Assembly (NCBI GenBank): GCA_964291265.2
Contig: OZ219747.1
Span: 3,680,001 to 3,744,000 of the forward strand
Source of the DNA: Alphaproteobacteria bacterium
Lineage (GTDB): Bacteria > Pseudomonadota > Alphaproteobacteria > SP197
DNA: 64,000 nucleotides
Direction of reading: 5' to 3'
The notes beneath the pieces were generated by a model. That model was not told the DNA's origin. It searched no databases and saw nothing but the letters and a program-made list of their open reading frames with translations. This document shows, piece after piece, positions 1 through 15,000 of the stretch (the stretch's first letter is position 1; the number at the start of each line of letters is the position of its first letter). The position numbers and the translations under genes were made by a program.

Positions 1-945
1 TGTTACAGTTTCGTTCAGCACCACAGGTGCGAGGATGGTGTGGAAGGTTGTGGACGTGGGCGCCGTGTAGCGCTTCTTCGACGGGCTGTAGAACGCACCC
101 ACCGCCGCCAGCTGTTCCTGGGTGAGCAGGGCGGCGAACTGAGCGAATGCGCTCACGCCGCGGTAGCCGGCGAGCCGGGCTGCGACGGCGATCGCGAGAA
201 TGGTTCTCAGCGGATAGCGCTTGCCCCGGGGCTTGCGGCACTCGGGCACCTCGCCCAGGCAGGCGAACAGACTGCGCAGCCCGGACGCGGCCATCGGTCC
301 GGCTTGGTCGTGCTGCTCCGCGTTCCAGCTCTCCGGGATCGCGTCCCGGCTCAGCGCCTCGGCGGCATCGTCGGTCAGTTCGTACATGAAGATCTCCTTG
401 GGCTGGCCGTGGTGACGGAAGCGTGCGGCGCCGCCGGGCTTGCGACCGAAGCCGCGCGTCAATCCCAGCGAGCGCCAGTTCGCCGCGCGATAGCAGGTTC
501 CGGCGAAGCGCTTGATGTCGACGAACGTCTCCGCGAGGAACACTGGGTATCCGTGCGCAGCCTCAATGTCGGCGGACAGCCGCCGAAGGCTCAGGCCGAG
601 CACGCGGGACGCCAGGTTCGGCACCCCTCTCGGGCCAAGAATGACGAACCGGGAATTGTTCGCGATCAGATGCAGGCGGCGGAACTGCTGCTCCGCAGTC
701 CAGCCGATCCAGCGGTCGCGTGCAGCAAGCTTGAACGCGCCCGGCTGCCAGCCGACCAGCGCCACCCAGGTCTCGCCGTGCAGGGCGACATGGCGCAGGC
801 CCTTGCCGATGATGCCGTGAAACCGCAGGTAGTGATGCTCCTTGACCAGACGATCCCAGAGCCGGTGCTCACGTGCGCCACGGGTCGGGCGCACCGTCAC
901 CTCGCGAAGGTCGATAGGGGAATCCGGGGTCGCAAGCGTCGTCAT
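1..945 (-). CDS. ISAs1-family transposase with N-terminal DUF4338 (DruA/Mom-like) domain, runs off window start
   Basis: Manual translation from ATG 945: MTTLATPDSP..WDRLVKEHHYL..ARDRWIGW..NNSRFVIL..NLASRVL..ETFVDIKRFAGTCYRAANW, then VPECRKPRGKRYPLRTILAIAVAARLAG (DDE_Tnp_1_assoc-like). Absent from ORF track because no stop in window. Confidence 0.8.
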   Translation of the reverse strand, partial: MTTLATPDSPIDLREVTVRPTRGAREHRLWDRLVKEHHYLRFHGIIGKGLRHVALHGETWVALVGWQPGAFKLAARDRWIGWTAEQQFRRLHLIANNSRFVILGPRGVPNLASRVLGLSLRRLSADIEAAHGYPVFLAETFVDIKRFAGTCYRAANWRSLGLTRGFGRKPGGAARFRHHGQPKEIFMYELTDDAAEALSRDAIPESWNAEQHDQAGPMAASGLRSLFACLGEVPECRKPRGKRYPLRTILAIAVAARLAGYRGVSAFAQFAALLTQEQLAAVGAFYSPSKKRYTAPTSTTFHTILAPVVLNETVT

Positions 946-1032
946 GCCGGCACACTGCCACAGCGAAAACGGGATGTCCACCCCCAGAATCCTGCGTGCG
1001 CCGAGCGCCGGGACGACAAAAGAAAAGCCCTG
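1..1032 (-). mobile_element. ISAs1-family IS, left portion
   Basis: Minus strand reads CAGGGCTTTTCTTTTGTCG from 1032, matching the CAGGG termini typical of ISAs1, 87 bp upstream of the transposase start. Confidence 0.65.
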
Positions 1033-1103
1033 CGCCGGCGGACGAGGCCGGCGACGGATAGGCGACCCGGACCCGTGACCCCGCGCGCGGCGTCCTGGGC
1101 CCG

Positions 1104-1613
1104 CTACAGCCCGAGCCGTTCGAACGTCCGAAGCGGCAGGTACAGGCGCAGCGGCCGCGACGGGAACGGCACGAAGCCGTACCGCTCGTAGAAGGCGCTG
1201 GCGCGGTCGTGCAGCGCATCGACCACGACGGCATAGACGCCGATGGTGTCGCCCGCGCGGACGACCCGATGGATCGCATCGAGCAGCAGGGTCTCGCCGA
1301 GCCCGCTTCCCTGACTGCGAAGATCGACGGCCAGCCGCCCGATGACGGCCGCCGGCACGGGATAGTGCGGCAGCCGCCGGGCGAGGTCCGCCGGCAGGTT
1401 GTCCTTCTCGAAACTCGCCGCGCTCAGCGTGTAGTAGCCGGCGATCCGTTCCGACGGGTCGCCCGGTGCGACGAACACCCGCGCGACACGCCGCCGGGCG
1501 TCCTGGGAAGCTTGCCGGCGGATGTAGCGGTCAAGCGACGACTCCCCGCAGGAGAAGGTCGCGCGGTCGTGATGCGGGCCGAGCGGCTCGAACGACTGCG
1601 GCGCTTCATCCAC
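1104..1613 (-). CDS. GNAT acetyltransferase toxin (TacT/AtaT-like)
   Basis: FSCGESSLDRYI, IAGYYTLSA, PVPAAVIGRLAVD..QGSGLG, FYERYGF; overlaps upstream antitoxin. Confidence 0.9.
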   Translation of the reverse strand: MDEAPQSFEPLGPHHDRATFSCGESSLDRYIRRQASQDARRRVARVFVAPGDPSERIAGYYTLSAASFEKDNLPADLARRLPHYPVPAAVIGRLAVDLRSQGSGLGETLLLDAIHRVVRAGDTIGVYAVVVDALHDRASAFYERYGFVPFPSRPLRLYLPLRTFERLGL

Positions 1614-1890
1614 CGATACGCTCGCGGTAACGGCGCGCGGCGCGGCGCAGCGCCGCGTTCGGCGCGGGCGGATTGAGCAGCGCGTCGTGGAAGGCGTCCC
1701 AGTCCGTCGCCGGGAGGACGATCCGCTCGTGCGCCTCGATCACCCGCTCGGCCTCGGCTACGGCACTGTGCAGCACGAAACGGCTGACCGTGGTTTCCTC
1801 GTAGGCCGCCGCGCGTTCGAGCTTGCGCTTGCTCCTGGCGTCGAGGCGCAGGTGGACCCGCTCGTGCTTCGTCTCGGCTGTTTCGGCCAT
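1606..1890 (-). CDS. DUF1778 ribbon-helix-helix antitoxin
   Basis: HERVHLRL..KLERAAA..VSRFVL..DWDAFHDALLNPPAPNAALRRA; 94 aa, directly upstream of GNAT toxin. Confidence 0.9.
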   Translation of the reverse strand: MAETAETKHERVHLRLDARSKRKLERAAAYEETTVSRFVLHSAVAEAERVIEAHERIVLPATDWDAFHDALLNPPAPNAALRRAARRYRERIGG

Positions 1891-1995
1891 TACGATGTCT
1901 CCCGCGTGAGTTGACGATAGATATATGCACCACATTGGCGTACATTGCAACCGTGTCGGCGGAGGACGACGGCGAGAGACAGGAGAACCGAGACC

Positions 1996-3655
1996 ATGAC
2001 CCTTTGCTGTGCGCTTTACGCCTGCAATTCGTCCGACCAGCAGCGGTCGGCCTCCATCGAGGACCAGTTCCGGGCCTGCCGCGAGCACGCGGAGCGCGAG
2101 GGCTGGAAGATCGTCGGCACGTACCGGGACTCCGCCATCTCGGGAGACAGCGTGATCCTCCGGCCCGGCGTCCAGGCGCTTCTGGAGGACGCGCGGCGAG
2201 GCGCGTTCGAGATCGTCGTCGCCGAGGCCCTCGACCGGATCAGCCGCGACCAGACCGATGTTGCGACCCTCTACAAGCATCTGCGCTTCGCCGGCGTGAC
2301 GATCTTCACGCTCGCGGCGGGCGAAGGCGAGATCAACGAGCTTCACGTCGGCCTCAAGGGGACCATGAACGCGCTCTTCCTGAAGGACCTCGCGGCGAAG
2401 ACGCACCGGAGGCTCCGGGGCCGCGTCGAGGTCGGCAAGTCGGGCGGCGGCATCTGCTGCGGCTATGACGTGGTGAAGCTGCACGACGAGGCCGGCGAGC
2501 GCATCCGGGGCGAGCGGGAGATCAACGAGGCCGAGGCGGAGATCGTCCGGCGCATCTTCCGCGAGTTCGCCGCCGACACCGCCCGCGCGCCATCGCGCGG
2601 CGCCTCGACGACGAGGGCATCCCCGGCGCCAAGGGCAGGCTCTGGAGCGACTCCGTCCTGCGCGGCCACGCCAGGCGCGGTACCGGGCTGCTCAACAACG
2701 AGCTCTATATCGGCCGGCTGGTGTGGAACCGCCAGCGCTTCCTGAAGAACCCGGACACCGGCAAGCGGGTCTGCGCGCGTCAACCCGCCCGAGGAATGGA
2801 TAATCGCCGAGGTTCCGGAGCTCCGCATCGTCGACGACGCGCTGTGGCAGGACGCCAAGGCCCGGCAGGAAGAGCTTGCCGAGAAATACGCCACCGCCAT
2901 CGCGGCGACGCGGAACGCCCACGCCAACCGCATGAAGGCCGCCCACCGGCCGCGTTATCTGCTCTCCGGGCTGCTCGAATGCGGCGTCTGCGGCGGCCCC
3001 TATTCCATGCGCGGACAGGGCCGCTACGGCTGCTCTAACCACGTCGTGACGGGCTCGTGCGCCAACAGCCGGACCATCCGGCGCGTCGAGATCGAGGAGC
3101 GGGTGCTGGCGGGGCTGAAGGACAAGCTGATGGAGCCCGAAGCCGCCGCCGAAGCGATGAAAGCGTATGCCGAAGAGACCAACCGGCTCAACCGCGAGCG
3201 CCGCGCGTCGGGCGCGAGCGACCGCGCGGAGCTGGCCGGGATCGAGAAGAAGATCGCGTCGATGCTCGACGCCATTGAGGAGGGTGGCTACGTGCGGGGT
3301 ATGTCCGACCGGCTCCGCGAGCTGGAGGCCCGCCAGGACGAGATCAACGAACGGCTGTCAGCCGCTCCGGTCGACATCCCGGACGTTCACCCCAACATTG
3401 CCGGCGTCTACCGCCGCAAGGTGGAGCGGCTCGCGGAGGCGCTGGCCGATCCCCGCGACCGCGACCAGGCGACGGAAGCCATAAGGGGGCTGATCGAGCG
3501 GATCGTGCTGACCCCCCGGCGCGAAGCGTGACGAGTTGCACGCCGCGCTCCATGGCGACCTCGGCACCATCCTCGAATGGGCCGGGAGCGGCAGGGCGAA
3601 GGGAGCGACCGACATCCTGCGAGGCGGAATGTCGGTCTCGGTGGTAGCGGGGGAA
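1996..3655 (+). pseudogene. Large serine recombinase (resolvase + recombinase + Zn ribbon), frameshifted
   Basis: ALYACNSSDQQ..SIEDQ, EALDRISRD, YLLSGLLECGVCGG, ERIVLTP, LHGDLGTIL..SVVAG spread over ORFs 1945-2745, 2721-3038, 2932-3531, 3536-3787. Confidence 0.85.
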
Positions 3656-4401
3656 CACTTCCACCGACACTGGACAGCCGTCCCGATCGCACAGAAGGCC
3701 GAACTCGATCTGCAGCTTGCCCTTCTTGCCATCCCGGGAATGACCCCTCCTCGCCAGGGGGCACGCTCTCCCCTCCATCCACACTGAAGTCAGGTCATGG
3801 AGCACCAGGCAGCCCTCTTCGAGGCGCCGCTTCGCCAGGGACCGCTCGATCCTCTCCTGACGCTCCAGGAGCCAGTCCATGGCGCCGTAGAGGGCGTCCT
3901 CGTCCATCTCCGCATCGAGGACCTCGCCCAGGGTGCTGACCGCTGTGGCCAGCTTCGAAGCGGGCTCGAGGATGCGTGCCACGATCATGGCCAGGACCTG
4001 ATCGCGCTCAGGCGAGGGCTTCGGGTCGATCAACCTGTCCAGTCCCAGCTTCTTCAGGGTTCCCAGCACCGCGGCGACATGCCCGTGGGGAAGGGAGCGG
4101 ACGATGTCGAAGGCATCGTCGAGATGTCGGACTGCTGTTCCTCCCTTGAGGAGGATGCGCAATCCCTCGACGAGAGTGGGGGACCACTTGGAGAGGTTGG
4201 CGATGGTGCGCTTCTTGACCTTTCCGTTTTCGTGATAGGACTCGCGGAGCAGGATGGCGGGCGGCGAGGAGCGGTTGGGGACGGCTTCGATGTACGTGGC
4301 CACCGTACATGGGTACGTTGTGAGGCCCGATAAATCCAGCAAACCGCGCAATATCAATGAGTTGACGCGACTGTCAGCTGGAAAGCGTGCGGAACTTCGG
4401 G
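3650..4401 (-). mobile_element. IS1634-family element, 5' remnant (start codon ACG, truncated)
   Basis: YIEAVPNRSSPPAILLRESY..KRTIANLS..LVLHDLTSVWMEG..GHSRDGKKGKLQIEFGLLCD; terminus CCCGAAGTTCC (minus strand) at 4401-4391. Confidence 0.8.
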
Positions 4402-4415
4402 CTCATCGTAACTAC

Positions 4416-5894
4416 TCACCCCTTGTTAGGGTCTGGTTGTCCGTAGTGCTCGTTGAGGATGTCTACGGCCTTTCCGTCGAGGGCGATGTGGATGGCGACG
4501 TGAGGGTTGTAGCCGAGTGCGTCCATGGTGGTGAGGTAGCTTGAGCCTCGGCACCATGCTTTGGCGTGGGGCATGGTGCGGAAACATCCGGACACCTTGA
4601 TCTTGACCTTTGTCATCCTGATCTTCTGCTCTCCGGTATTGTTGGTGAAACTGACGTTGGGGTCCTTCATGAAGCGCAGGACGGACTTCTCGTGTTTCAC
4701 GAGACGTTCATGCAGGTTGTGCGCGTCGGACTTTGCGATGCGTCCCCGTTTTCCCTTCGTCCGTGGCGGGATGTCGGGCAGTTCCTTGGCGCCCTGGGTG
4801 AGGATGGTGCGGTAGCGCTTGCGCACGGCCCGGCGGTCGGCCTCGTTCAAGGTCTTGGATGCGCTCTTGTTGACCCTGCGGGAGACCTCGCGCAGTAGGC
4901 TTTTCATCAGTCGCGCCCAGCGGTAGCCGTTGGACTCGACGACGAAGGTCAGTTCGCGCAGGAGATGGCTGCCGCACAGTTGGTGGCGGCATTGATCGTA
5001 GCCCATGTAGGCAGCCCAGCAGTCGTGGATCAGGACGCCCTTGTAGCGCGGGATGATGCCGATCTCTTCGATCGCCTCCCGGCCGCGCTTGGGGTGCGGG
5101 AACTTGCACGTCAGGGTGCCGTCGGTGACGACATGGAGCCATTGGGTCTTGCCGGCGACCCGGAAGCCGGTCTCGTCGACATGCAGGGCCGGTTGTTGCA
5201 GGAGATGGGCCACGGCGGCCTCCTCCCATGATGCGAGGGCATCGTGAAAGCGCCGGACATAGCCGAGACAGGTCGCCTCGGAGAGCTTGATGCCGGAGAT
5301 CGCGTGCACGAGCGAGACGGCACGACGCAGGGACAGCATCTGGGCGATCAGCAGGTTGATGACGAGGGCCTGGATGCTGACGCCGTACTGCAGGGGCCCC
5401 GGCATGTTGTCTGGGAACCGGCCCTTGGTCCGGGCCCGGCACTTCGGGCATTCCTTGATCTCGGCTTCGACGCGGTGCTCGACGACTTCGAACACGATGT
5501 CGTAGAGGACGCGGCACTCCCGGTCGACGGGGTCGACATCGTGGAGGTCGGCGCCGCAGGCGTCGCAGGCATCGACGGTGATCGTCTCCTCGATGGTGGT
5601 CGTGCGCAGGTTGTCGCCCGTCTGCTGGTTCGGTTTCGGGCCCTTGCCGTTGCTCCCGGTGCGCCTCGCGCTCTCGTCCTTGTCAGTCTGAGATGGCGGC
5701 AGACCGGAGTTCCGGCTCGTCTTACGTGTGATCTTCTCCATGAGCACGGTCAGCAACAGCTTTATCAGCATCAGCATGCCGCGGATGAGCTCCTCGCACT
5801 CCTGGTTGACCTTGCCTTGCTTGCGGAGATCCTGGAACTGCTTCTGGAAGACGTCGGCCTCCTGGCGCACAGACGTGCCGTTCACGCTCGCCAT
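4416..5894 (-). CDS. IS66 transposase (TnpC-like, ISBst12-type without TnpA/B)
   Basis: TSRNSGLPPS, CDACG..CPKC zinc finger, LHVDETG, LIHDCWAAY, HQLCGSHLLREL, FTNNTGEQKIR..KIKVSGCFR. Confidence 0.9.
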   Translation of the reverse strand: MASVNGTSVRQEADVFQKQFQDLRKQGKVNQECEELIRGMLMLIKLLLTVLMEKITRKTSRNSGLPPSQTDKDESARRTGSNGKGPKPNQQTGDNLRTTTIEETITVDACDACGADLHDVDPVDRECRVLYDIVFEVVEHRVEAEIKECPKCRARTKGRFPDNMPGPLQYGVSIQALVINLLIAQMLSLRRAVSLVHAISGIKLSEATCLGYVRRFHDALASWEEAAVAHLLQQPALHVDETGFRVAGKTQWLHVVTDGTLTCKFPHPKRGREAIEEIGIIPRYKGVLIHDCWAAYMGYDQCRHQLCGSHLLRELTFVVESNGYRWARLMKSLLREVSRRVNKSASKTLNEADRRAVRKRYRTILTQGAKELPDIPPRTKGKRGRIAKSDAHNLHERLVKHEKSVLRFMKDPNVSFTNNTGEQKIRMTKVKIKVSGCFRTMPHAKAWCRGSSYLTTMDALGYNPHVAIHIALDGKAVDILNEHYGQPDPNKG

Positions 5895-6556
5895 GACGAC
5901 GCCTCCACCGCCATGACAGCCGCCAGCACGGCGAGCCGCTCGCCTTCGGGCATCGTCCGGTAGCGCCGCGCCCAGCTCTCTGCGAGGCGCTTGATGCGCT
6001 GGCGGTCGATCGAGTTCCTGCCCGTATACGTATGCCAGTGCGGCCGGCCCGGTGCGAAGTTGAACCACAGCTTCTCGGTGACAACGCAGGCCTGGTTGTT
6101 GACCTGGACCTCGGCCGTGCGCCAGCCGGCGAGGTGCGTGTCGTAGAGCCGCGAGGGATAGCCGGAGATCATCACCTGGCAGGGCAGCGACGTCAGGATG
6201 TCGAGGAGCGCAACATGGTCGTCGTCCGTGCAGTCGAAGCGGTAGCGGCGCTGCGACCGGCGCGTCGACTGCACGTAAGGCGGGTCGCAGTAGACCAGCT
6301 CGCGGCCCTGGAAGGCGAAGGTCTCGAGAAAACGCAGGGCGCAGCCTTGGTGAAGCTCCACCGGATAGTCACAGCGGAAGCTGTCGATCGCCCGGCGGTT
6401 GAGGTCAATGCCGATGCTGCGTAGCGCCGGAGGCTTGCGCTTCATGATCGCGCCGCCCCCAAGGAACGCCTCGATGTACACGTCATGCGGCGGCATGGCC
6501 GCGACGATCGCCTGGCTCAGACCCGTCGTCGCCTTCGATCCATACCATGCCGCCAT
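5882..6556 (-). CDS. D12-class (Dam-like) N6-adenine DNA methyltransferase
   Basis: WYGSK, YIEAFLGGGA (motif I), YCDPPY (motif IV), VMISGY; GGAGA RBS; 3' end overlaps transposase start by 13 nt. Confidence 0.85.
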   Translation of the reverse strand: MAAWYGSKATTGLSQAIVAAMPPHDVYIEAFLGGGAIMKRKPPALRSIGIDLNRRAIDSFRCDYPVELHQGCALRFLETFAFQGRELVYCDPPYVQSTRRSQRRYRFDCTDDDHVALLDILTSLPCQVMISGYPSRLYDTHLAGWRTAEVQVNNQACVVTEKLWFNFAPGRPHWHTYTGRNSIDRQRIKRLAESWARRYRTMPEGERLAVLAAVMAVEASSWRA

Positions 6557-7154
6557 CAATATCTCCGACGCAAACCGCCCCGATGGCCTGCATGTAGAGC
6601 GCCCCTCCTACAATGTCAAGCGCATATCTCCAGAGGATTGGAAAGGCAGCCAACGGAACCCGCCCCACCGGACAGAACGGTTGACACGCAACCTCGGCGC
6701 GGGGTGCCGGATCACGTCGCAGCCCCCTCCCCATAAGGCCGGAACGTGGAGCTGAAGCCGAAGATCGATCCGCTTCTTGTCAGTCGGAACACGCACATCC
6801 GATCATCGGCAGCGAGCCAGTGAAGGCGGCAAGAGAAAATGCCGGATCCGAACCCGTCAAGAAAAACCATTCGTCATCAGTAGGGGGGTGAGTAGTTACG
6901 GCTCATCTTCAAAGGCGATTCCCCTAGCCCCGGGAATGGCGGATTTCAGGCACGGCCGCCGCCCGGATCGGTCAGATCGGAGGCTTTTTCCCGCAACAGG
7001 CAAATATGTTACATATAGCGCAATGATCCGTTGGGAGACGGCCATGGCCCCAGCATCCACCAGCGCGCAGCGCGCCGAGAAGCGCAGGGCGGCCCTCAGA
7101 GCACAGGGACTGCGGCCAATATAGATCTGGGTTCCCGATACCCGCGCCCCCGGT

Positions 7155-9573
7155 CTGCCCATCGGACACATTTCGCGCTCGACTCGCTGATTCCTTTGCG
7201 CTATGGTCGGGCGCATGGACGACCCTGTTTCGATTCCGAGCGCGCTTTCCTCGCCACAAGGCATGGCGAAGTTGTCGCGGATTCTGGCGCAGCCGGAGGT
7301 CTCACGTGCCGAGATCGGCCGCAGGGTATGCGACGCTTTCGGCTTTGTTGACTTTCGCGGGCGACCGCAGGTCACGAGTTGCCTTTGTTGCCCTTCGCCG
7401 TCTTGAGCGGGCGGGCAGGATCGTTCTTCCTTCGCCCCGCCGTGGCGGCGGCCGGGGTGCCGTGGCTCGCAGGGAGGTGGCGGTTGCCGAGCCTGTGGGT
7501 CTTCCGGCGAGCGCCGGTGCGGCCTGAGGGCCTTGAGCTTGTCCGGGTCGAGGGATCGGAGCTTCGGCTGATCTTCAACGAGCTGATGGCGTCGGAGCAT
7601 CCGCGCAGCGCCCGTCTTCACGTCGGCCGTCAGCTGCGCTACCTGATCGGATCGTCGCATGGCTGGCTCGGCGGGTTCCTGTTTGCTCCGGCGACGCGGG
7701 TCCTGGCGGCGCGGGATGCCTGGCTTGGCTGGGACGATGCGAGCCGCGAGCGGCATCTCGACGAGGTGATCGGTCTGGCGCGATTCCTGATCCGTCCATC
7801 CGTCTGTGTACGTTATCTTGCGTCGCGGGTCCTGGGCATGGCGGCCCGGCGCTTAGGTGGTGACTTTGCGGCGGCCTATGGCATCCGTCCGGTTCTGGCC
7901 CTTGACCTTTGTCGCGCCGGAGTATCGGGGCAGTTGCTTCCTGGCGGCCGGCTGGCGCTGTGTCGGTGAGACCACCGGGCGCCGGCTTCGTGACGGCGTG
8001 GCGGAACCGGCGAAGCGCATCCTTCTGCTGCCGCTGGCCTCGGACTGGGACACCTGCCTGGAGGCGCGGCGCGTCCTGGCGCCCGGGGACGGCCTTGACA
8101 GCGCGGCCTGGGCAGAGAACGAATTCGGCGCCGCGCCCTCAGGAGACGCCCGCCTGACGCAGCGGCTTGTGCGCAGTGCCGAGGTTCAGGCCCGGTCACC
8201 GACGAAGACATTCTTCGCTGCGGCGGCTGGCTGCGGAGCGACGGTGAAGGGATACGACAGGATGATCGAGCATCCGGACTACGACGCGGTCTGTGCGTCC
8301 ACCATCATCGGGGGGCATCGCGAACGGACCCTGCGGCGGATGCAGGGCCAGGCGCTGTCGCTTCTGGTGCAGGACGGCACGGACCTCAACTTCGCGACCC
8401 GCCAGGGTTGCGAAGGCCTGGGGATGATCGGCTGCAACACGGGGTCTTCGGGGACGTCGGGCCTGCACCTGCACACGACCTTTGCCGTGAGCGGCGACGG
8501 GGTTCCCCTCGGCGTTGTCAACCTTGAGTTCGACGCCCCGGACGGCGGGGACGACCGGGATCGTCCGGTGGAGGAGCGCAAGACCGGACGGTGGCTGCGC
8601 GGCCTTCGCCACAGCATCGCGGCGGCGAAGGAACTGGACGGGGTGAAGGCCGTGGCGGTGATGGACCGCGAAGGGGACGCGTTCGATGTGCTCCACGAAC
8701 ACCGTGCGGCGGGCTGCCGCCGTCTGGCGCTGCTGGTGCGGGCGCGCCATGACCGCAGCTTCGGCCGCGGCCGGCCCAAGCTGTTCGAGCGTGTGCGCAC
8801 GGCGCCGGAAGGCGGACAGTTCTCCCTCACGGTGGAGCGATTGTCGGGGCGACGTTCGACAGGGGCGCAGAAGGCCTCCGTCGGGCGAGCGAGGCGCCAG
8901 GCGCAGGTGAGCCTGCGCTGGCTGACACGCGAGATCCCGCCGCCTGCACACACAAGGGCGCACTTCGGAGCGCAGCCGGTGGTGCTGACCGCGATCCATG
9001 CCGGGGAGGTGGACAGGCCCGACGACGGGTCACAACCGGTGTCGTGGACCCTGCTCACGACCCTGCCTGTCACGAGCCTGCACCAGGCCCGCGAGGTGGT
9101 GCGGCTCTACGGGTTGAGGTGGCGGATCGAGGACTGGCACAGGATCCTCAAGTCGGGCTGCAAGGTGGAGACGATCGCGCATCGTACCGGGGGACGCATC
9201 GAACGGGCCGTGGCCATCAACGCGGTGATGGCCTGGCGCATCGCCGCTCTCACCCACCTGGCGCGAACGGAACCGGAGCTTCCGGCAAGGACCGCATTCA
9301 CCGACATCGAACTGGCGCTGCTGAAAGACTTCGCGCATGTCCGCAAGCTGCCGCCGCCCGAGGATCTCTCAGCGGCATTCCGCCTCGTGGCGACGATGGG
9401 CGGATACCTGAACCGCAGCAAGGACGGCCCGCCCGGCGCGGAGATCACCTGGAACGGCCAGGCTGCGCTGTCGTTCACGGCGTGGATGCTGGGTCACAGT
9501 GTCGATGCCGGGGACGACAGCGCCGTGCGGCAACACATCAGCTAGCCAGACGGCATTTGTGGGCAATGGGCAG
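7155..9573 (+). mobile_element. IS4-family (IS50/Tn5-like) element
   Basis: Ends CTGCCCAT.. / ..ATGGGCAG; 8-bp TSD CCCCCGGT at 7147-7154 and 9574-9581. Confidence 0.9.
7204..9545 (+). pseudogene. DUF4338-fused IS4/Tn5-like transposase, about 3 frameshifts in the N-terminal part
   Basis: DUF4338 motifs GRQLRYLI..ARDAWLGW..RFLIRP..LASRVL..TFV..GSCFLAAGW; Tn5-like WAENEFG..GDARLTQRL, VQDGTDLNF, MDREGD, YGLRWRIEDWHRILKSGCKVE, GGYLNRSKDGPPG. Confidence 0.85.
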
Positions 9574-9718
9574 CCCCCGGTTTTGCCGAAGAGTGCGCTC
9601 GCCAGGCCGCGGTCGTCGATGCGGCCAACCGCGCCGACCCGGAGCTCATGCAATTCATGGACGCAGCCGCCGCCGATCTCGCCGACCATCCGGACGCTCT
9701 TGAAACCGGACACGAGGA

Positions 9719-10047
9719 GTGAAGCGCGGCGACCTCGTCACTGTTGCGCTGCAGGGCGAACATGGCAAACCGCGCCCGGCGCTGGTGGTCCAGTCGGACC
9801 TTTTCGCCGGACTGACGTCGACTGTCACAGTCATATTGCTGACCTCGACCGTGCTCGACGCCCCGCTGATACGCGTACCGGTCCAACCCTCCGGGAGCAA
9901 CGGCCTGCGCACGCGCTCCTATGTCATGATCGATCAGATCTTCTCGGCAGGACGCGCCGCATCGGGCAGGTTTTCGGACATCTTGGCGATGCCGACATGG
10001 TGGCGGTGAATCGCGCGCTCGCCCTGTTCACGGGAATCGCCCGCTGA
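9719..10047 (+). pseudogene. PemK/MazF-family toxin, frameshifted near 9950
   Basis: MKRGDLVTVALQGEHGKPRPALVVQSD..NGLRTRSYVMIDQI, then other frame RIGQVFGHL..VNRALALFTGIA; GTGA overlap with antitoxin stop. Confidence 0.85.
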
Positions 10048-11110: not shown

Positions 11111-11678
11111 CGGGATCCTGCCCTCCATGCCCGAGCGACAGGGCGGCGTTCGGCCGCTGGCCGCCCGCCTCGGCGCTGCAACCTTCGAGACTGTCGAGCC
11201 GCCCGCGCCGCTCTTCCCGAAAGCGCGGCGGTTCTTGGCCGAAGCGGTATCGACCGCCCGCGAATGCCGCCCATTTGCGTTGCTGAATCGGCGCCCTTGA
11301 CGTCGCTATGCCCGAGGCGGGGCTGATTGCCGATGCAAGACGGCACGATTGGGAACCGGACTTCGTTGTGGGCCAGGGGCCGCCATACAAGCCTTCAGAA
11401 CCCGTCCAGGAGTCGCTGCTTGGGGCCCGGCGCATCCGGATGGCAGCCGTTCCGTTCCGCAACGACGGAAGCACAGGCGGACAGTCCCTTCGCAAGGACG
11501 ATATTGCTTTGTGCGCCCGCGCCTTCGCGCACGGCGACGATCCTCTCGTCCTTTGCGTCTGGATGGGGCATGAGGGCGAAGGCGAGGACTGGAAATGCAT
11601 CCTCAACCGGTGACAATCACCACCAGTCACCGCGTGACCGAACGCTTGCGACGACGAGAAAAGGAGGAGGGCGCCGCC

Positions 11679-13397
11679 ATGAACGTGTCCGACGGATTCA
11701 GGGCGTGGAAGGACAAACACGAAACGCCGGCCTATCACACCATTCCGTCCGCCCTGCCCGAACGGGCCGCCGGAGGTCCGGTGATCAGCGACACCATGGT
11801 GCCCATGCGCGACGGCATCGAACTGGCAACGGACATCTATCTTCCTGCCGGTGACGGCCCCTTCCCGGCCATCCTCACGCGCATGCCCTACGGCAAGACG
11901 GAACCTTACTGTTTCATGCCGGCCATCGCCCGACATTGGGTGCGCATGGGCTATGCAGCCGTGGTCCAGGACGTGCGGGGCAAGTGGGGATCAGGGGGTT
12001 GTTTCGAACCCAATCTTGCCGACAACGAGGTCCCTGACGGCTACGACACCATCACCTGGATCGCCGGCGAAGCATGGTCAGACGGCCGGGTCGGCATGTG
12101 GGGCGAGAGCTATTTCGGTTTTACCAGCTATGCCGGAGCCGTGAGCGGCCATCCGGCCCTGCGGTGCGTTGCGCCCGGCGACATCTCCCTTGATCGCTAT
12201 CGCGCCACCATGCGCTACGGCTGCCTGCAACTGAACACGGTAGGAACCTGGGCGATCTCGATGACCGACCAGACCTACCAGGATCTCTCCCGGCTGGACT
12301 ACTGGCACCTTCCGCTGGCCGACATGGCCAACGCGGCCGGCATTCCGTCGTGCTACTTCGACGAACTCATCGCCAATCCCCTGCCCTCCCGGTTCTGGAA
12401 CCGGCACAGCCTCCTTGCCGGATACGAGAGCATCCACATCCCCGTGCTGCACTGGGGCGGCTGGTACGACAATTACCTCGGTCCCACCATTGCCGACTGG
12501 CGCACCATGGAGAAACACAACCGCGCCGCCGGCAACCAGCATCTCTTCATCGGTCCCTGGGACCACGAGGGCACGGCCGACCGCTGCCACAGGGTCGGCC
12601 TGTTGCCTGTCAACTCCAGCACGGCCGAGGTCAAGTGGGACACCTTCATCACCTTCTTCGACCGCTATCTCAAGGGCGACGAAAACGGGTTCGGCGAGAC
12701 CGGCATCATTCGCTACTATGTCATGGGTCGGGACATCTGGCGTGATGCCGGGTCATGGCCGCCCCGGGAGTGCCGGGAACAGCGGTTCTACCTGAGGTCT
12801 ACCGACTCCCTGCGTCTTGCCCACGATCCTCCCGGCAGCGAACCGGCGACGAGCTTTCGCTACGACCCCGCCGATCCGGTCGCCGAGACACTGGCCTACG
12901 ACTGCTGGTCCCTGGCGGGGCAGATGGGAGACCGGCGCGAGATCCACGAACGTCAGGATGTTCTCGTCTACGTGACGGAACCATTCGCCGACGAACTGGA
13001 ACTGACAGGTCCCATCTCGGCTCACATCTTCTTCTCCAGCAGTGCGGTGGATACGGATGTCACTGTGGCACTCGCCGATGTGGCCGAAGACGGCAGCGCC
13101 AATCTCATACAGGACGGCATCCTGCGTTGCCGATTCCGCAACGGGACAGAACGGGAGGAGCTGATGGTGCCGGGAGAAGTCCAGGAGCTCGACATCGACC
13201 TCTGGTCAACCAGTTATGCGCTCGCTCCCGGACACCGTCTCGCCGTCGAGATCTCGTCCAGCAACTTCAACCGCTACGACCGCAATCTCAACACCGGCGA
13301 ACCGTTCGGTCAGGGCGCCACCCCCGTCGTCGCAACGCAGACTGTCTTCCACGATACCTGCCGGGCCTCCTGCATCACCGTGACCGTCCACGCCTGA
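11679..13397 (+). CDS. CocE/NonD family serine hydrolase
   Basis: MVPMRDGIELATDIY, RMPYGK, QDVRGKWGSGG, GMWGESY, GGWYD, GPWDH, ISSSNFNRYDRNLNTG; GGAGG RBS. Confidence 0.9.
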   Translation: MNVSDGFRAWKDKHETPAYHTIPSALPERAAGGPVISDTMVPMRDGIELATDIYLPAGDGPFPAILTRMPYGKTEPYCFMPAIARHWVRMGYAAVVQDVRGKWGSGGCFEPNLADNEVPDGYDTITWIAGEAWSDGRVGMWGESYFGFTSYAGAVSGHPALRCVAPGDISLDRYRATMRYGCLQLNTVGTWAISMTDQTYQDLSRLDYWHLPLADMANAAGIPSCYFDELIANPLPSRFWNRHSLLAGYESIHIPVLHWGGWYDNYLGPTIADWRTMEKHNRAAGNQHLFIGPWDHEGTADRCHRVGLLPVNSSTAEVKWDTFITFFDRYLKGDENGFGETGIIRYYVMGRDIWRDAGSWPPRECREQRFYLRSTDSLRLAHDPPGSEPATSFRYDPADPVAETLAYDCWSLAGQMGDRREIHERQDVLVYVTEPFADELELTGPISAHIFFSSSAVDTDVTVALADVAEDGSANLIQDGILRCRFRNGTEREELMVPGEVQELDIDLWSTSYALAPGHRLAVEISSSNFNRYDRNLNTGEPFGQGATPVVATQTVFHDTCRASCITVTVHA

Positions 13398-13558
13398 GTC
13401 CCTCCAGCTGGAGATGACGGCAGGCAGTTCGTGGTCAGGGGTGGCGATCAACGCGCCGCCCCATCGAAGCGGCCGCAGGGACAAGCATCGTGACAGGCGC
13501 CCTGTTCCGTCGTGATCGTCGGCATTCCGGCACCGGTCAGCCGCTTCGAGGCTGCCGG

Positions 13559-14749
13559 TCAGGATACCGTGTCGCTTGTGAGCCTGCTGGCTACCCACCA
13601 GGCGACATGGCGATTGTGCTGTTCGTGACGGGAAAGCGGCCCAGGCGAGGCCCGACCACTATCAAGGGCCTTCTGGATCGCCGCATTGGCGGGGGTATCT
13701 TCGTCGTTGAAGCGGTGGAAGAACCTCTCGAAACGATCAAGCCGCGCCTCGAAGTCCGTCAGAAGGCGGGCGCTTTCCGGGACCAGAAGATCGACCTCCA
13801 TGTGTGAACGGCCGACATCGAGCGGAAGAAAGCGGATCATGATGCCACAGTCGGGCTGCAGGTAGATGAGGTAGTTCGGCAGGACGTAGAACAGTACGAA
13901 GTGAGTGCGGTGGAATGTGTCGAGGTCATCGAGCGGCTCGAAGTAGCACCCTGGCATGACCCTGATCCCGTCGGCCAGAGTCTCAAGACTTTCCTCGCGC
14001 GCCGGACTCCACTGCAGTATCCAGTCGTCGCCACAGGTCGTACCGGCTCTGTCTCCAGGGAAGACGGTCTGGAAGGTCTCGGGGTGCAACCCTTCGTGGT
14101 GGTAGCATTCGCCGTTGTCCTGCATCACCTTCCAGCCCCAGGGAACCTCTCCGAGGTTCAGGGTGCGTGCGGTGAACCAGCTGTCGAGACCGTAGGGACG
14201 GAGCGTCTCCTCGAGACCCGCCAGGCGAGGTGCGAGAGAACCGGCGCGACCATCGAGATTGACGAAAACGAACCCGTGCCAGACCTCGAAGGAGAGTTCT
14301 TCCAGGCGGGTGGCCGCAGCATCGAATTCGGGATGGGATTCCATGCCCGGCGCCCGGCGCAGACATCCGTCGAGGCCGTAGACCCAGGCGTGATAGGGGC
14401 AGGTGATGATGGCCTTGCGCCCCTTCCCCTCAAGGACCTTCATCCAACGGTGACGGCAGATGTTCGCAAAGATCCTGAGACACCCCTTGTGGTCTCGGAC
14501 CATGGCGACCGGTGTGCCGACGATTTCGCGGGCAACGTAACTGCCCGGTTCGCGGACTTCGTCGGCCCGGCCGACAGCGATCCATCCCGCCCGAAAGATC
14601 CTCTCGACTTCAAGGGCATGGATGTCCGGATTGCAGTACGCATCCGCCGGTAGCGTCATCCATCCGGCGTTGCCGTCTGCCGCCATGGCGGACATAGCCC
14701 CGAGAGTGGCGGCCGTTCTGGCTGCCTGAGTGCCTTGGTAACCCTGCAT
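13559..14749 (-). CDS. Rieske non-heme iron oxygenase alpha subunit (choline/carnitine monooxygenase-like)
   Basis: NICRHR..CPYHAWVYGLDG Rieske motif, WKVMQDNGECYHHEGLHP, FNDED; start uncertain. Confidence 0.85.
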   Translation of the reverse strand: MQGYQGTQAARTAATLGAMSAMAADGNAGWMTLPADAYCNPDIHALEVERIFRAGWIAVGRADEVREPGSYVAREIVGTPVAMVRDHKGCLRIFANICRHRWMKVLEGKGRKAIITCPYHAWVYGLDGCLRRAPGMESHPEFDAAATRLEELSFEVWHGFVFVNLDGRAGSLAPRLAGLEETLRPYGLDSWFTARTLNLGEVPWGWKVMQDNGECYHHEGLHPETFQTVFPGDRAGTTCGDDWILQWSPAREESLETLADGIRVMPGCYFEPLDDLDTFHRTHFVLFYVLPNYLIYLQPDCGIMIRFLPLDVGRSHMEVDLLVPESARLLTDFEARLDRFERFFHRFNDEDTPANAAIQKALDSGRASPGPLSRHEQHNRHVAWWVASRLTSDTVS

Positions 14750-15000
14750 TCCTTCCTCCGCGCCGATTATGGCGGGAACGGACCGTCGCGACAATCCCCG
14801 GAGCGCGTGGCCGCCACCTCCCTGATGTTGCCCCACTCTCGAGAACGAACCGGAATCCTCGCCGACGCGTGAAGCGGATGACGACACGGACTTCGCAAAC
14901 ATGAGAGAACGCCTCCTCGGTGTCGGGCTGGCAGTGACGTGGTAGGGTTCGGCGCCCGAACACGGCGAAACGCACACTGTTTCGACCCATGGAGACCGCG

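Follow-up and report, generated by a model that had tools for sequence, protein, structure and literature searches.

Phage Mu Mom (PDB 8BV8; PF25680; PHROG 1384) is a tRNA-dependent GNAT enzyme that modifies adenines, and DNA hypermodification by Mom is, to our knowledge, established experimentally from phages only. Here we describe candidate relatives of this enzyme that are carried by insertion sequences (ISs) of an alphaproteobacterium of the GTDB lineage SP197. They are DruA/DUF4338-type domains (PF14236) of an ISAs1 and a Tn5-type IS4 element, which occur, together with an IS66 element encoding a methyltransferase (MTase)-like protein, in the first 10 kb of the window, by which we mean the whole stretch analysed (64,000 nucleotides; positions 3,680,001 to 3,744,000 of contig OZ219747.1, assembly GCA_964291265.2). 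The 4.83-Mb genome is represented by two contigs with 65% guanine plus cytosine, and mobile DNA is piled up in the region in question.

Mom gives protection from more than 20 restriction enzymes, and its overexpression is lethal (PMC7261163); momylation systems occur in phage and bacterial genomes (PMC7824862). A precedent for a Dam-related methylase replacing Mom on a transposable element is provided by Hia5, Hin1523 and Nma1821 of Mu-like prophages, which combine proven activity with a divergent target-recognition region of ~90 residues (PMC3299994). Upf31 of IncP-1beta plasmids represses its own promoter, and no methylation was seen with DpnI/MboI (GATC) or by SMRT (single-molecule real-time) sequencing, for which an expression vector in a methylase-free strain was used (PMC11997246). 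RefSeq-style labels for the proteins studied here give only transposase or "DUF4338 domain-containing protein". Type I Druantia, the defence system that contains DruA, is a druABCDE operon with the DruE helicase, and Iyer and colleagues reportedly linked Mom-like proteins to diverse bacterial transposases in 2009. In the searched literature, with subscription papers and ISfinder outside its reach, we found no study of these IS modules. The word undescribed, which an earlier note made from the sequence of this DNA had applied to a candidate system here, is nonetheless too strong, since DUF4338 has already been called a GNAT (PMC10853773). New from this genome are a side-by-side census, the contrast of complete and degenerate active sites, and repeated loss of the module with continued spread.

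Likeness of the transposase-linked domains to Mom

The resemblance to Mom that had been proposed from the motif TFVD..GTCYRAANW, located in the ISAs1 protein, was borne out by profile and structure comparisons. A profile–profile alignment against 13 phage Mom proteins gave a probability of 96% (E 4.6e-9, score 62.8), with 60 column shuffles scoring at most 23.5, and a Mom profile run on 31,933 open reading frames (ORFs) of the genome yielded 24 hits at E<10, all 24 of them DruA ORFs. Structure searches, which the earlier note had suggested as a check, ranked Mom 8BV8 first. For the predicted model of the ISAs1 domain (predicted local distance difference test, pLDDT, 95.7), VIA-align placed it at the top of 48,161 chains (Z 16.1, root-mean-square deviation 3.5, 167 aligned residues), the next-best GNAT reaching 13.3, and Foldseek returned it as best match (E 6e-7, template-modelling score 0.64); for the IS66-linked DruA-like protein Mom was also first in Foldseek, by a small margin. 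In a protein atlas searched with DruA excluded, Mom clusters came out on top with lead-level scores of 0.86–0.89, and in PHROG Mom was the sole, weak match to the window domain (E 0.2). Viral contigs scanned for Mom yielded nothing beyond near relatives at 85–100% identity, and these were not used. Other sequence comparisons were negative. The window domain had no hit to the Pfam Mom family (PF25680), which 5 of 103 homologues hit at E≤0.001; hhalign of the domain profile against a single Mom sequence was not significant (E 0.059), with hidden Markov model scores inside the shuffled range; and a PDB sequence search with the domain, as a single sequence and as an alignment profile, returned nothing meaningful. 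On the strength of the profile–profile match and the model-based structure searches, we classify the DUF4338 domains as Mom-like GNATs.

As key residues we took those that are important in Mom (PMC13219725, PMC7261163) and invariant in the 13-Mom alignment, namely H58, Y59 (F in one sequence), R111, S/T124, D149 and Y159; R151, found in 5 of the 13 only, fell in insert columns and was not used. Their equivalents in the ISAs1 domain are H26, Y27, R87, S101, D131 and Y140, where R87 probably corresponds to R111, judging from one alignment and from its place in the central strand of the model. All six are present in 88 of 103 ISAs1-side homologues, and H, R and S are invariant across the 10 lineages of the genome. 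The earlier reading is weakened for the Tn5-type domains, that of the window included, which lack one to three of the residues: Y59 is replaced by P or F and, in most of them, D149 by G or A and Y159 by L, C or F. The window IS4 domain itself has H, P, R, S, A and F at the six Mom-invariant positions.

Although they share the fold of Mom and, in the ISAs1 lineage, its six residues, the IS-borne domains are only about 16–18% identical to it, lack most of its helix-turn-helix (HTH)-like insertion, are fused to or encoded beside a transposase, and form a separate tree group. In place of this insertion, the IS4 and IS66 versions carry at their N-terminus a distinct three-helix domain, attached by a flexible linker, that may bind DNA; a structure search with the whole IS66-linked model returned a list filled by the GNAT part. 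Relative to DruA of type I Druantia, the IS-borne domain falls in the same Pfam family above the curated cut-off, but it matches the PADLOC DruA model weakly (E 0.016–0.034), has no DruB–E context and is IS-carried. A search for a Druantia operon placed all 55 full DruA-like domains of the genome in IS lineages, and three PF09369 helicase hits lay outside operons with any examined DruA gene. Two near-identical loci (G000:C2:1715745-1721086 and 2118928-2123153) encode a PF09369 protein of ~645 aa behind a large gene, with IS insertions 2–5 kb away; we take them to resemble DISARM drmA–drmB. As mobile elements, the carriers correspond to IS50/Tn5 (IS4 family), ISAs1 and single-gene IS66, with transposase models passing cut-offs and inverted repeats and target duplications present; unlike plain members of these families, they add an N-terminal module of 190–300 residues or an accessory gene.

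Census, loss and selection of the modules

An iterated profile search of the genome returned 121 DruA-like hits, including 55 full domains in 10 clusters; cluster 9, a frameshifted form of cluster 3, was excluded from the residue table and the tree. Among the clusters scanned for transposase type, the full domains belong to Tn5-type IS4 (NF033590), another IS4 type (NF033592) and ISAs1 (NF033564), and a further version is encoded by a standalone gene of 306 aa that lies downstream of an IS66 transposase, this neighbour being judged from its sequence and ends. After merging, the 4.8 Mb hold 101 DruA-like and 36 MTase loci. The earlier note had singled out three IS families with such modules within 10 kb as a candidate system. 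All three elements are genuine but do not constitute a single system, and with so many loci their proximity is unremarkable: 9.6-kb stretches with two DruA-like and one MTase locus were observed four times, compared to a random mean of 1.6 and maximum of 6, and when loci were placed at random, 83% of 1000 trials contained one or more such clusters (P=0.83), which ruled out a local system. Outside this genome, PF14236 occurs in 10 of 18 genomes from the same genus, with up to 35 matches, in 2 of 12 more distant ones and in none of 14 control genomes. The ISAs1 domain matches 6,273 cluster representatives (50% identity clusters; E≤0.001), and DDE_Tnp_1_assoc is present in 70 of 103 aligned ISAs1-domain homologues.

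In keeping with what had been anticipated, the modules travel in multi-copy elements and not as single degenerate passengers, and elements move as units with their modules. Loss of the module is also recurrent. Two distinct internal deletions that take out the GNAT occur in the IS66 family that carries the standalone gene; junction probes counted 18 and 7 copies of them against three matches to the intact junction, two of which are unbroken genes. Perfect 8-bp target duplications with different flanks were found for 12 of 13 and 3 of 4 deleted copies, these being the ones that the script could bound. The deleted copies therefore moved after the loss, and so transposition in this host does not require the module in cis; rather than belonging to the transposition apparatus, the module is likely a shield or a brake. 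One frameshift is common to four of the eight copies examined in a second MTase-IS66 lineage. Several copies of the second IS66 family are ~1.26 kb longer (4142–4182 bp vs 2883–2920 bp), with one insertion position near the left end (G000:C2:2670785-2671330 and similar).

Within the window, PF14236 matches support the DUF4338-type domains that the earlier note had assigned to ISAs1 and IS4, but in damaged copies: the former is only a 5' half, and the DruA part of the latter is interrupted by three frameshifts (Table 1). The ISAs1 ORF at 1-981 (−) contains DruA PF14236 (E 2.5e-22, above the curated cut-off) and DDE_Tnp_1_assoc, and its match to intact ISAs1 copies ends where an integrase-bearing element lying left of the window begins. 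Intact 609-aa ISAs1 fusions are present at three other genome places, and an intact copy passes the ISAs1 transposase model NF033564 (E 1.6e-60); the truncated window copy had no NCBIfam match. The adjoining element that truncates it (L014; G000:C2:3677570-3680040) is 2.47 kb long, carries two tandem tyrosine-integrase genes and has relatives at three other genome places (79–89% identity). At least six ISAs1 cluster-1 copies on G000:C2 (e.g. 2873625-2874806) were seen, most sharing a frame of 394–396 aa that ends inside the transposase and one running to 701 aa; their reading frames possibly reflect programmed frameshifting. Target immunity, a further idea, is unlikely because one copy of the window IS4 family has an ISAs1 fusion element within its left end.

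Table 1. Features of the three elements and of the intervening IS1634 fragment, in window positions
Feature	Position	Strand	Details
ISAs1-family element, 5' half	24..1032	−	left end 1032; truncated at about 24-29
DDE_Tnp_1_assoc domain	28..264	−	E 2e-10; in frame with GNAT domain
Predicted Mom-like GNAT (DruA/DUF4338) domain, N-terminus of ISAs1 transposase	346..909	−	PF14236; predicted model, pLDDT 95.7
IS1634 fragment	3644..4400	−	without modifier module; overlooked in the earlier note
IS66-family element, complete, without tnpA/tnpB	4408..6899	−	15-bp perfect inverted repeats, 8-bp target duplication
IS66 transposase TnpC	4416..5894	−	NF033517, E 2.9e-75; start overlaps end of upstream gene
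Compact Dam-fold protein, Upf31 family; predicted autorepressor	5882..6559	−	about 60 residues separate FxGxG from DPPY
Predicted promoter: TTGACA -35 box (6614-6619), then GTAG-N10-CTAC inverted repeat (6594-6611)	6594..6619	−	placed like Upf31 operator
IS4-family (Tn5-like) element, complete	7155..9573	+	short inverted repeats and 8-bp target duplication; inside antitoxin-like gene
Pseudogenised N-terminal helical domain and predicted Mom-like GNAT	7215..7985	+	frameshifts near 7388, 7525, 7901-7903
ORF with whole Tn5-type transposase core	7857..9545	+	NF033590, E 3.2e-78

In the IS4 element, the DruA match (7379-7969 (+), E 5.5e-19) is out of frame with the transposase through single-base frameshifts, two of which are common to every covering genome copy, the third occurring in 3 of 4 copies. 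Assembly error was ruled out as their source because independent short-read contigs (three runs, one study) carry both shifted and unshifted alleles. The empty IS4 insertion site is likewise present as contigs in two of the three runs.

Convergent recruitment of the domain, the explanation offered at the outset for its presence in different IS families, is not what the tree suggests. In a tree of 36 rows, midpoint-rooted, including no true Druantia DruA and read without direction, IS-borne domains and phage Mom lie on opposite sides of a fully supported branch, and the Tn5-type and ISAs1 domains each group together. That the IS-borne domains form one group sorted by transposase class agrees better with a single ancient family common to several IS types than with recurrent recruitment. 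Between five Tn5-type lineages, the GNAT equals the transposase in conservation (35–50% identity as compared to 29–54%). The ratio of nonsynonymous to synonymous substitution rates (dN/dS) of the ISAs1 GNAT was 0.22 vs 0.50 for the transposase in one foreign pair and 0.14 vs 0.29–0.41 in another (two closest copies), and that of the IS66 MTase-like gene was 0.17–0.41 (25 distinct sequences). Judged by these ratios, the modules are under purifying selection between genomes.

The Upf31-like gene of IS66 and the surrounding mobile DNA

The gene directly upstream of TnpC had been read as a DPPY adenine methyltransferase that may mark DNA. Its product is indeed homologous to D12-class adenine MTases and has motifs I (FxGxG) and IV (DPPY) of Dam-type enzymes, but it may not mark DNA, because it belongs to the Upf31 family, whose tested member gave no methylation signal. 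The protein has the same length as Upf31 (225 aa) and resembles it over the full length, with 39% identity in the C-terminal half; its nearest plasmid relatives are 44–51% identical, including a copy annotated Upf31.0 at 48%. An inverted repeat follows TTGACA at the same place in both, although the IS66 operator sequence differs, and, unlike Upf31, the IS66 protein heads IS66 elements and is coupled to tnpC. Compared, without direct alignment, to Hia5, Hin1523 and Nma1821, it has a shorter stretch between motifs I and IV and stands nearer to Upf31. A search of PDB sequences with the protein returned nothing meaningful.

This arrangement recurs widely. Relatives of the protein are encoded at 449 loci in GTDB genomes, and among the best 80 of these, 79 have DPPY and an open frame of at least 200 aa and 72 have an IS66 transposase directly downstream, the transposases comprising types down to 25% identity to one another's probes. 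The pattern TTGAC-N4-TAG-N10-CTA occurs in 21 of 28 upstream regions, at a position matching the Upf31 repeat, and 20 of 21 genome matches to TTGAC/TAG-N10-CTA are part of this IS66 element or stand ahead of other MTase hits. The lone match without an assigned MTase hit, at G000:C2:14833 (−), may head a decayed or different cassette. Ten genome copies of the MTase-IS66 element, whose inverted repeats begin GTAA, have both genes full length, and a strict probe for target duplications caught two copies. From these comparisons, the gene is likely an autorepressor cassette in which the catalytic motifs are still conserved. We infer from the design of the SMRT test that methylation restricted to the operator may have been invisible in it, because an expression vector in a methylase-free strain was used.

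From left to right, the first part of the window contains the ISAs1 5' half, a GNAT toxin-like gene with its partner, a serine recombinase, the IS1634 fragment, the IS66 element and the Tn5-type IS4 element. The toxin-like gene (1104-1613; Pfam Acetyltransf_1) and its small upstream partner, for which Pfam and NCBIfam gave no match, occupy 1104-1891 (−) and presumably resemble a GNAT–ribbon-helix-helix toxin–antitoxin pair. The large serine recombinase (1945-3531 (+)) is broken by a frameshift near 2590-2720, its resolvase and zinc-ribbon domains lying in separate frames. The antitoxin-like gene split by IS4 is followed by a MazF/PemK-like gene with an apparent frameshift near 9950 (7023-7154 and 9574-10047 (+)), so that both halves of this pair seem decayed. 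Further right, a CocE/NonD-type hydrolase (Peptidase_S15 and PepX_C) and a Rieske oxygenase-like ORF (11595-14977 (+)) are ordinary metabolic genes.

Proposed roles and their consequences

The reading that we prefer, with a probability of roughly 0.4 for its parts taken jointly, is that the region has accumulated independent insertion sequences bearing two accessory modules unrelated to each other: a Mom-type accessory that acylates adenines and shields elements entering new hosts, and a separate Upf31-type autorepressor cassette. The GNAT would acylate adenines in DNA and thereby shield the element from restriction on arrival, with the fused transposase or its own three-helix domain bringing it to DNA in place of Mom's insertion; such tethering would keep the marking local and make it less toxic than that of Mom. 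The benefit would arise at horizontal transfer, and the module would be dispensable afterwards or, since Mom is toxic, costly, which would lead to long-term conservation together with short-term loss. Tn5-type versions with incomplete residue sets may be weakened, re-specified or binding-only, and the Upf31-type protein would repress its own operon and so limit the IS66 transposase. Several observations weigh against the shield. About 23 residues of Mom's HTH-like insertion (Mom 175-209) are missing in a global alignment with the IS-borne domain, and deleting this insertion abolishes Mom activity (PMC13219725). Only 2 of the 10 lineages, the window ISAs1 lineage and an IS4_1-type lineage, keep all six residues, and R111 falls at R78 or R87 depending on which of two profile alignments is used. 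The supposed transfer vehicles are not seen, with the ISAs1 domain in 0 of 50,697 phage records and the IS66-linked GNAT domain on 2 of 72,556 plasmids. Three more distant ISAs1 pairs gave dN/dS of 0.49–0.60, in short or near-saturated alignments. Finally, other elements could act in trans for the deleted copies, whose excess fits a brake equally well, shield and brake predicting the same deletion pattern.

Dam methylation lowers IS50 and IS10 transposition, and it is possible, if somewhat unlikely, that both modules brake their own element, the Mom-like domain marking or binding its ends or promoter to lower transposition and the Upf31-like protein acting likewise for IS66. The 25 to 2 ratio of deleted to unbroken IS66 copies, the fusion or proximity of the domain to the transposase, the shared frameshift in half of the second MTase-IS66 lineage and the autorepressor function of Upf31 (PMC11997246) agree with this; however, intact-fusion lineages are multi-copy as well, with 8 of 11 copies full length in one Tn5-type cluster alongside the ten full-length MTase-IS66 copies, and a brief look at the 5' ends of the GNAT elements found no shared operator motif. 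Alternatively, the domain may leave DNA unmodified and serve as a nucleic-acid-binding accessory, or acylate another substrate, such as tRNA or protein, for instance with a role in addiction or in manipulating the host. GNAT structure cannot predict substrate (PMC13219725), Upf31 illustrates how a modifier fold is reused as a regulator (PMC11997246), and both the restriction of invariance to H, R and S in Tn5-type versions and the largely absent DNA-binding insertion point the same way. We nevertheless consider such a role improbable, given the complete Mom set in most ISAs1-group sequences, the clear lead of Mom over all other GNATs in structure searches, and elements in which, as far as examined, no antitoxin partner was present. 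Least probable by far is that the host tolerates the elements for spreading a Druantia-like anti-phage function: membership in the DruA Pfam family, the fusion of DUF4338 to DndF in defence systems (PMC10853773) and the strong expansion in some genomes of the genus would suit this, but the PADLOC match is marginal, every full domain lies in an IS lineage, the PF09369 helicase hits share no operon with any examined DruA gene, and the module is repeatedly lost.

Whatever their role, the IS-borne domains provide a biochemical lead for Druantia DruA, and they call for caution in annotation, as DruA hits borne by ISs do not represent defence systems and Upf31-like genes may be wrongly labelled "DNA adenine methylase". 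The genome holds intact and deleted versions next to catalytically degenerate ones and so offers a ready comparison, and, if the IS-borne versions work, the matching clusters would constitute a large untapped source of cis-acting base-modifying enzymes. A bolder proposal, which we regard as doubtful in its entirety, is that plain insertion sequences, spanning four or more transposase types, come with a DNA-hypermodifying enzyme of their own, the tethered Mom-type enzyme placing a bulky adenine mark on the element and its surroundings as a private anti-restriction shield or epigenetic switch and the Upf31-like protein of IS66 methylating only its own operator; the published SMRT test would have overlooked such methylation had the test strain lacked the operator. 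If this were true, genomes with ~100 such loci would carry an IS-written modified base together with cheater copies that have dropped the enzyme, and simple transposons would run their own anti-restriction or epigenetic control.

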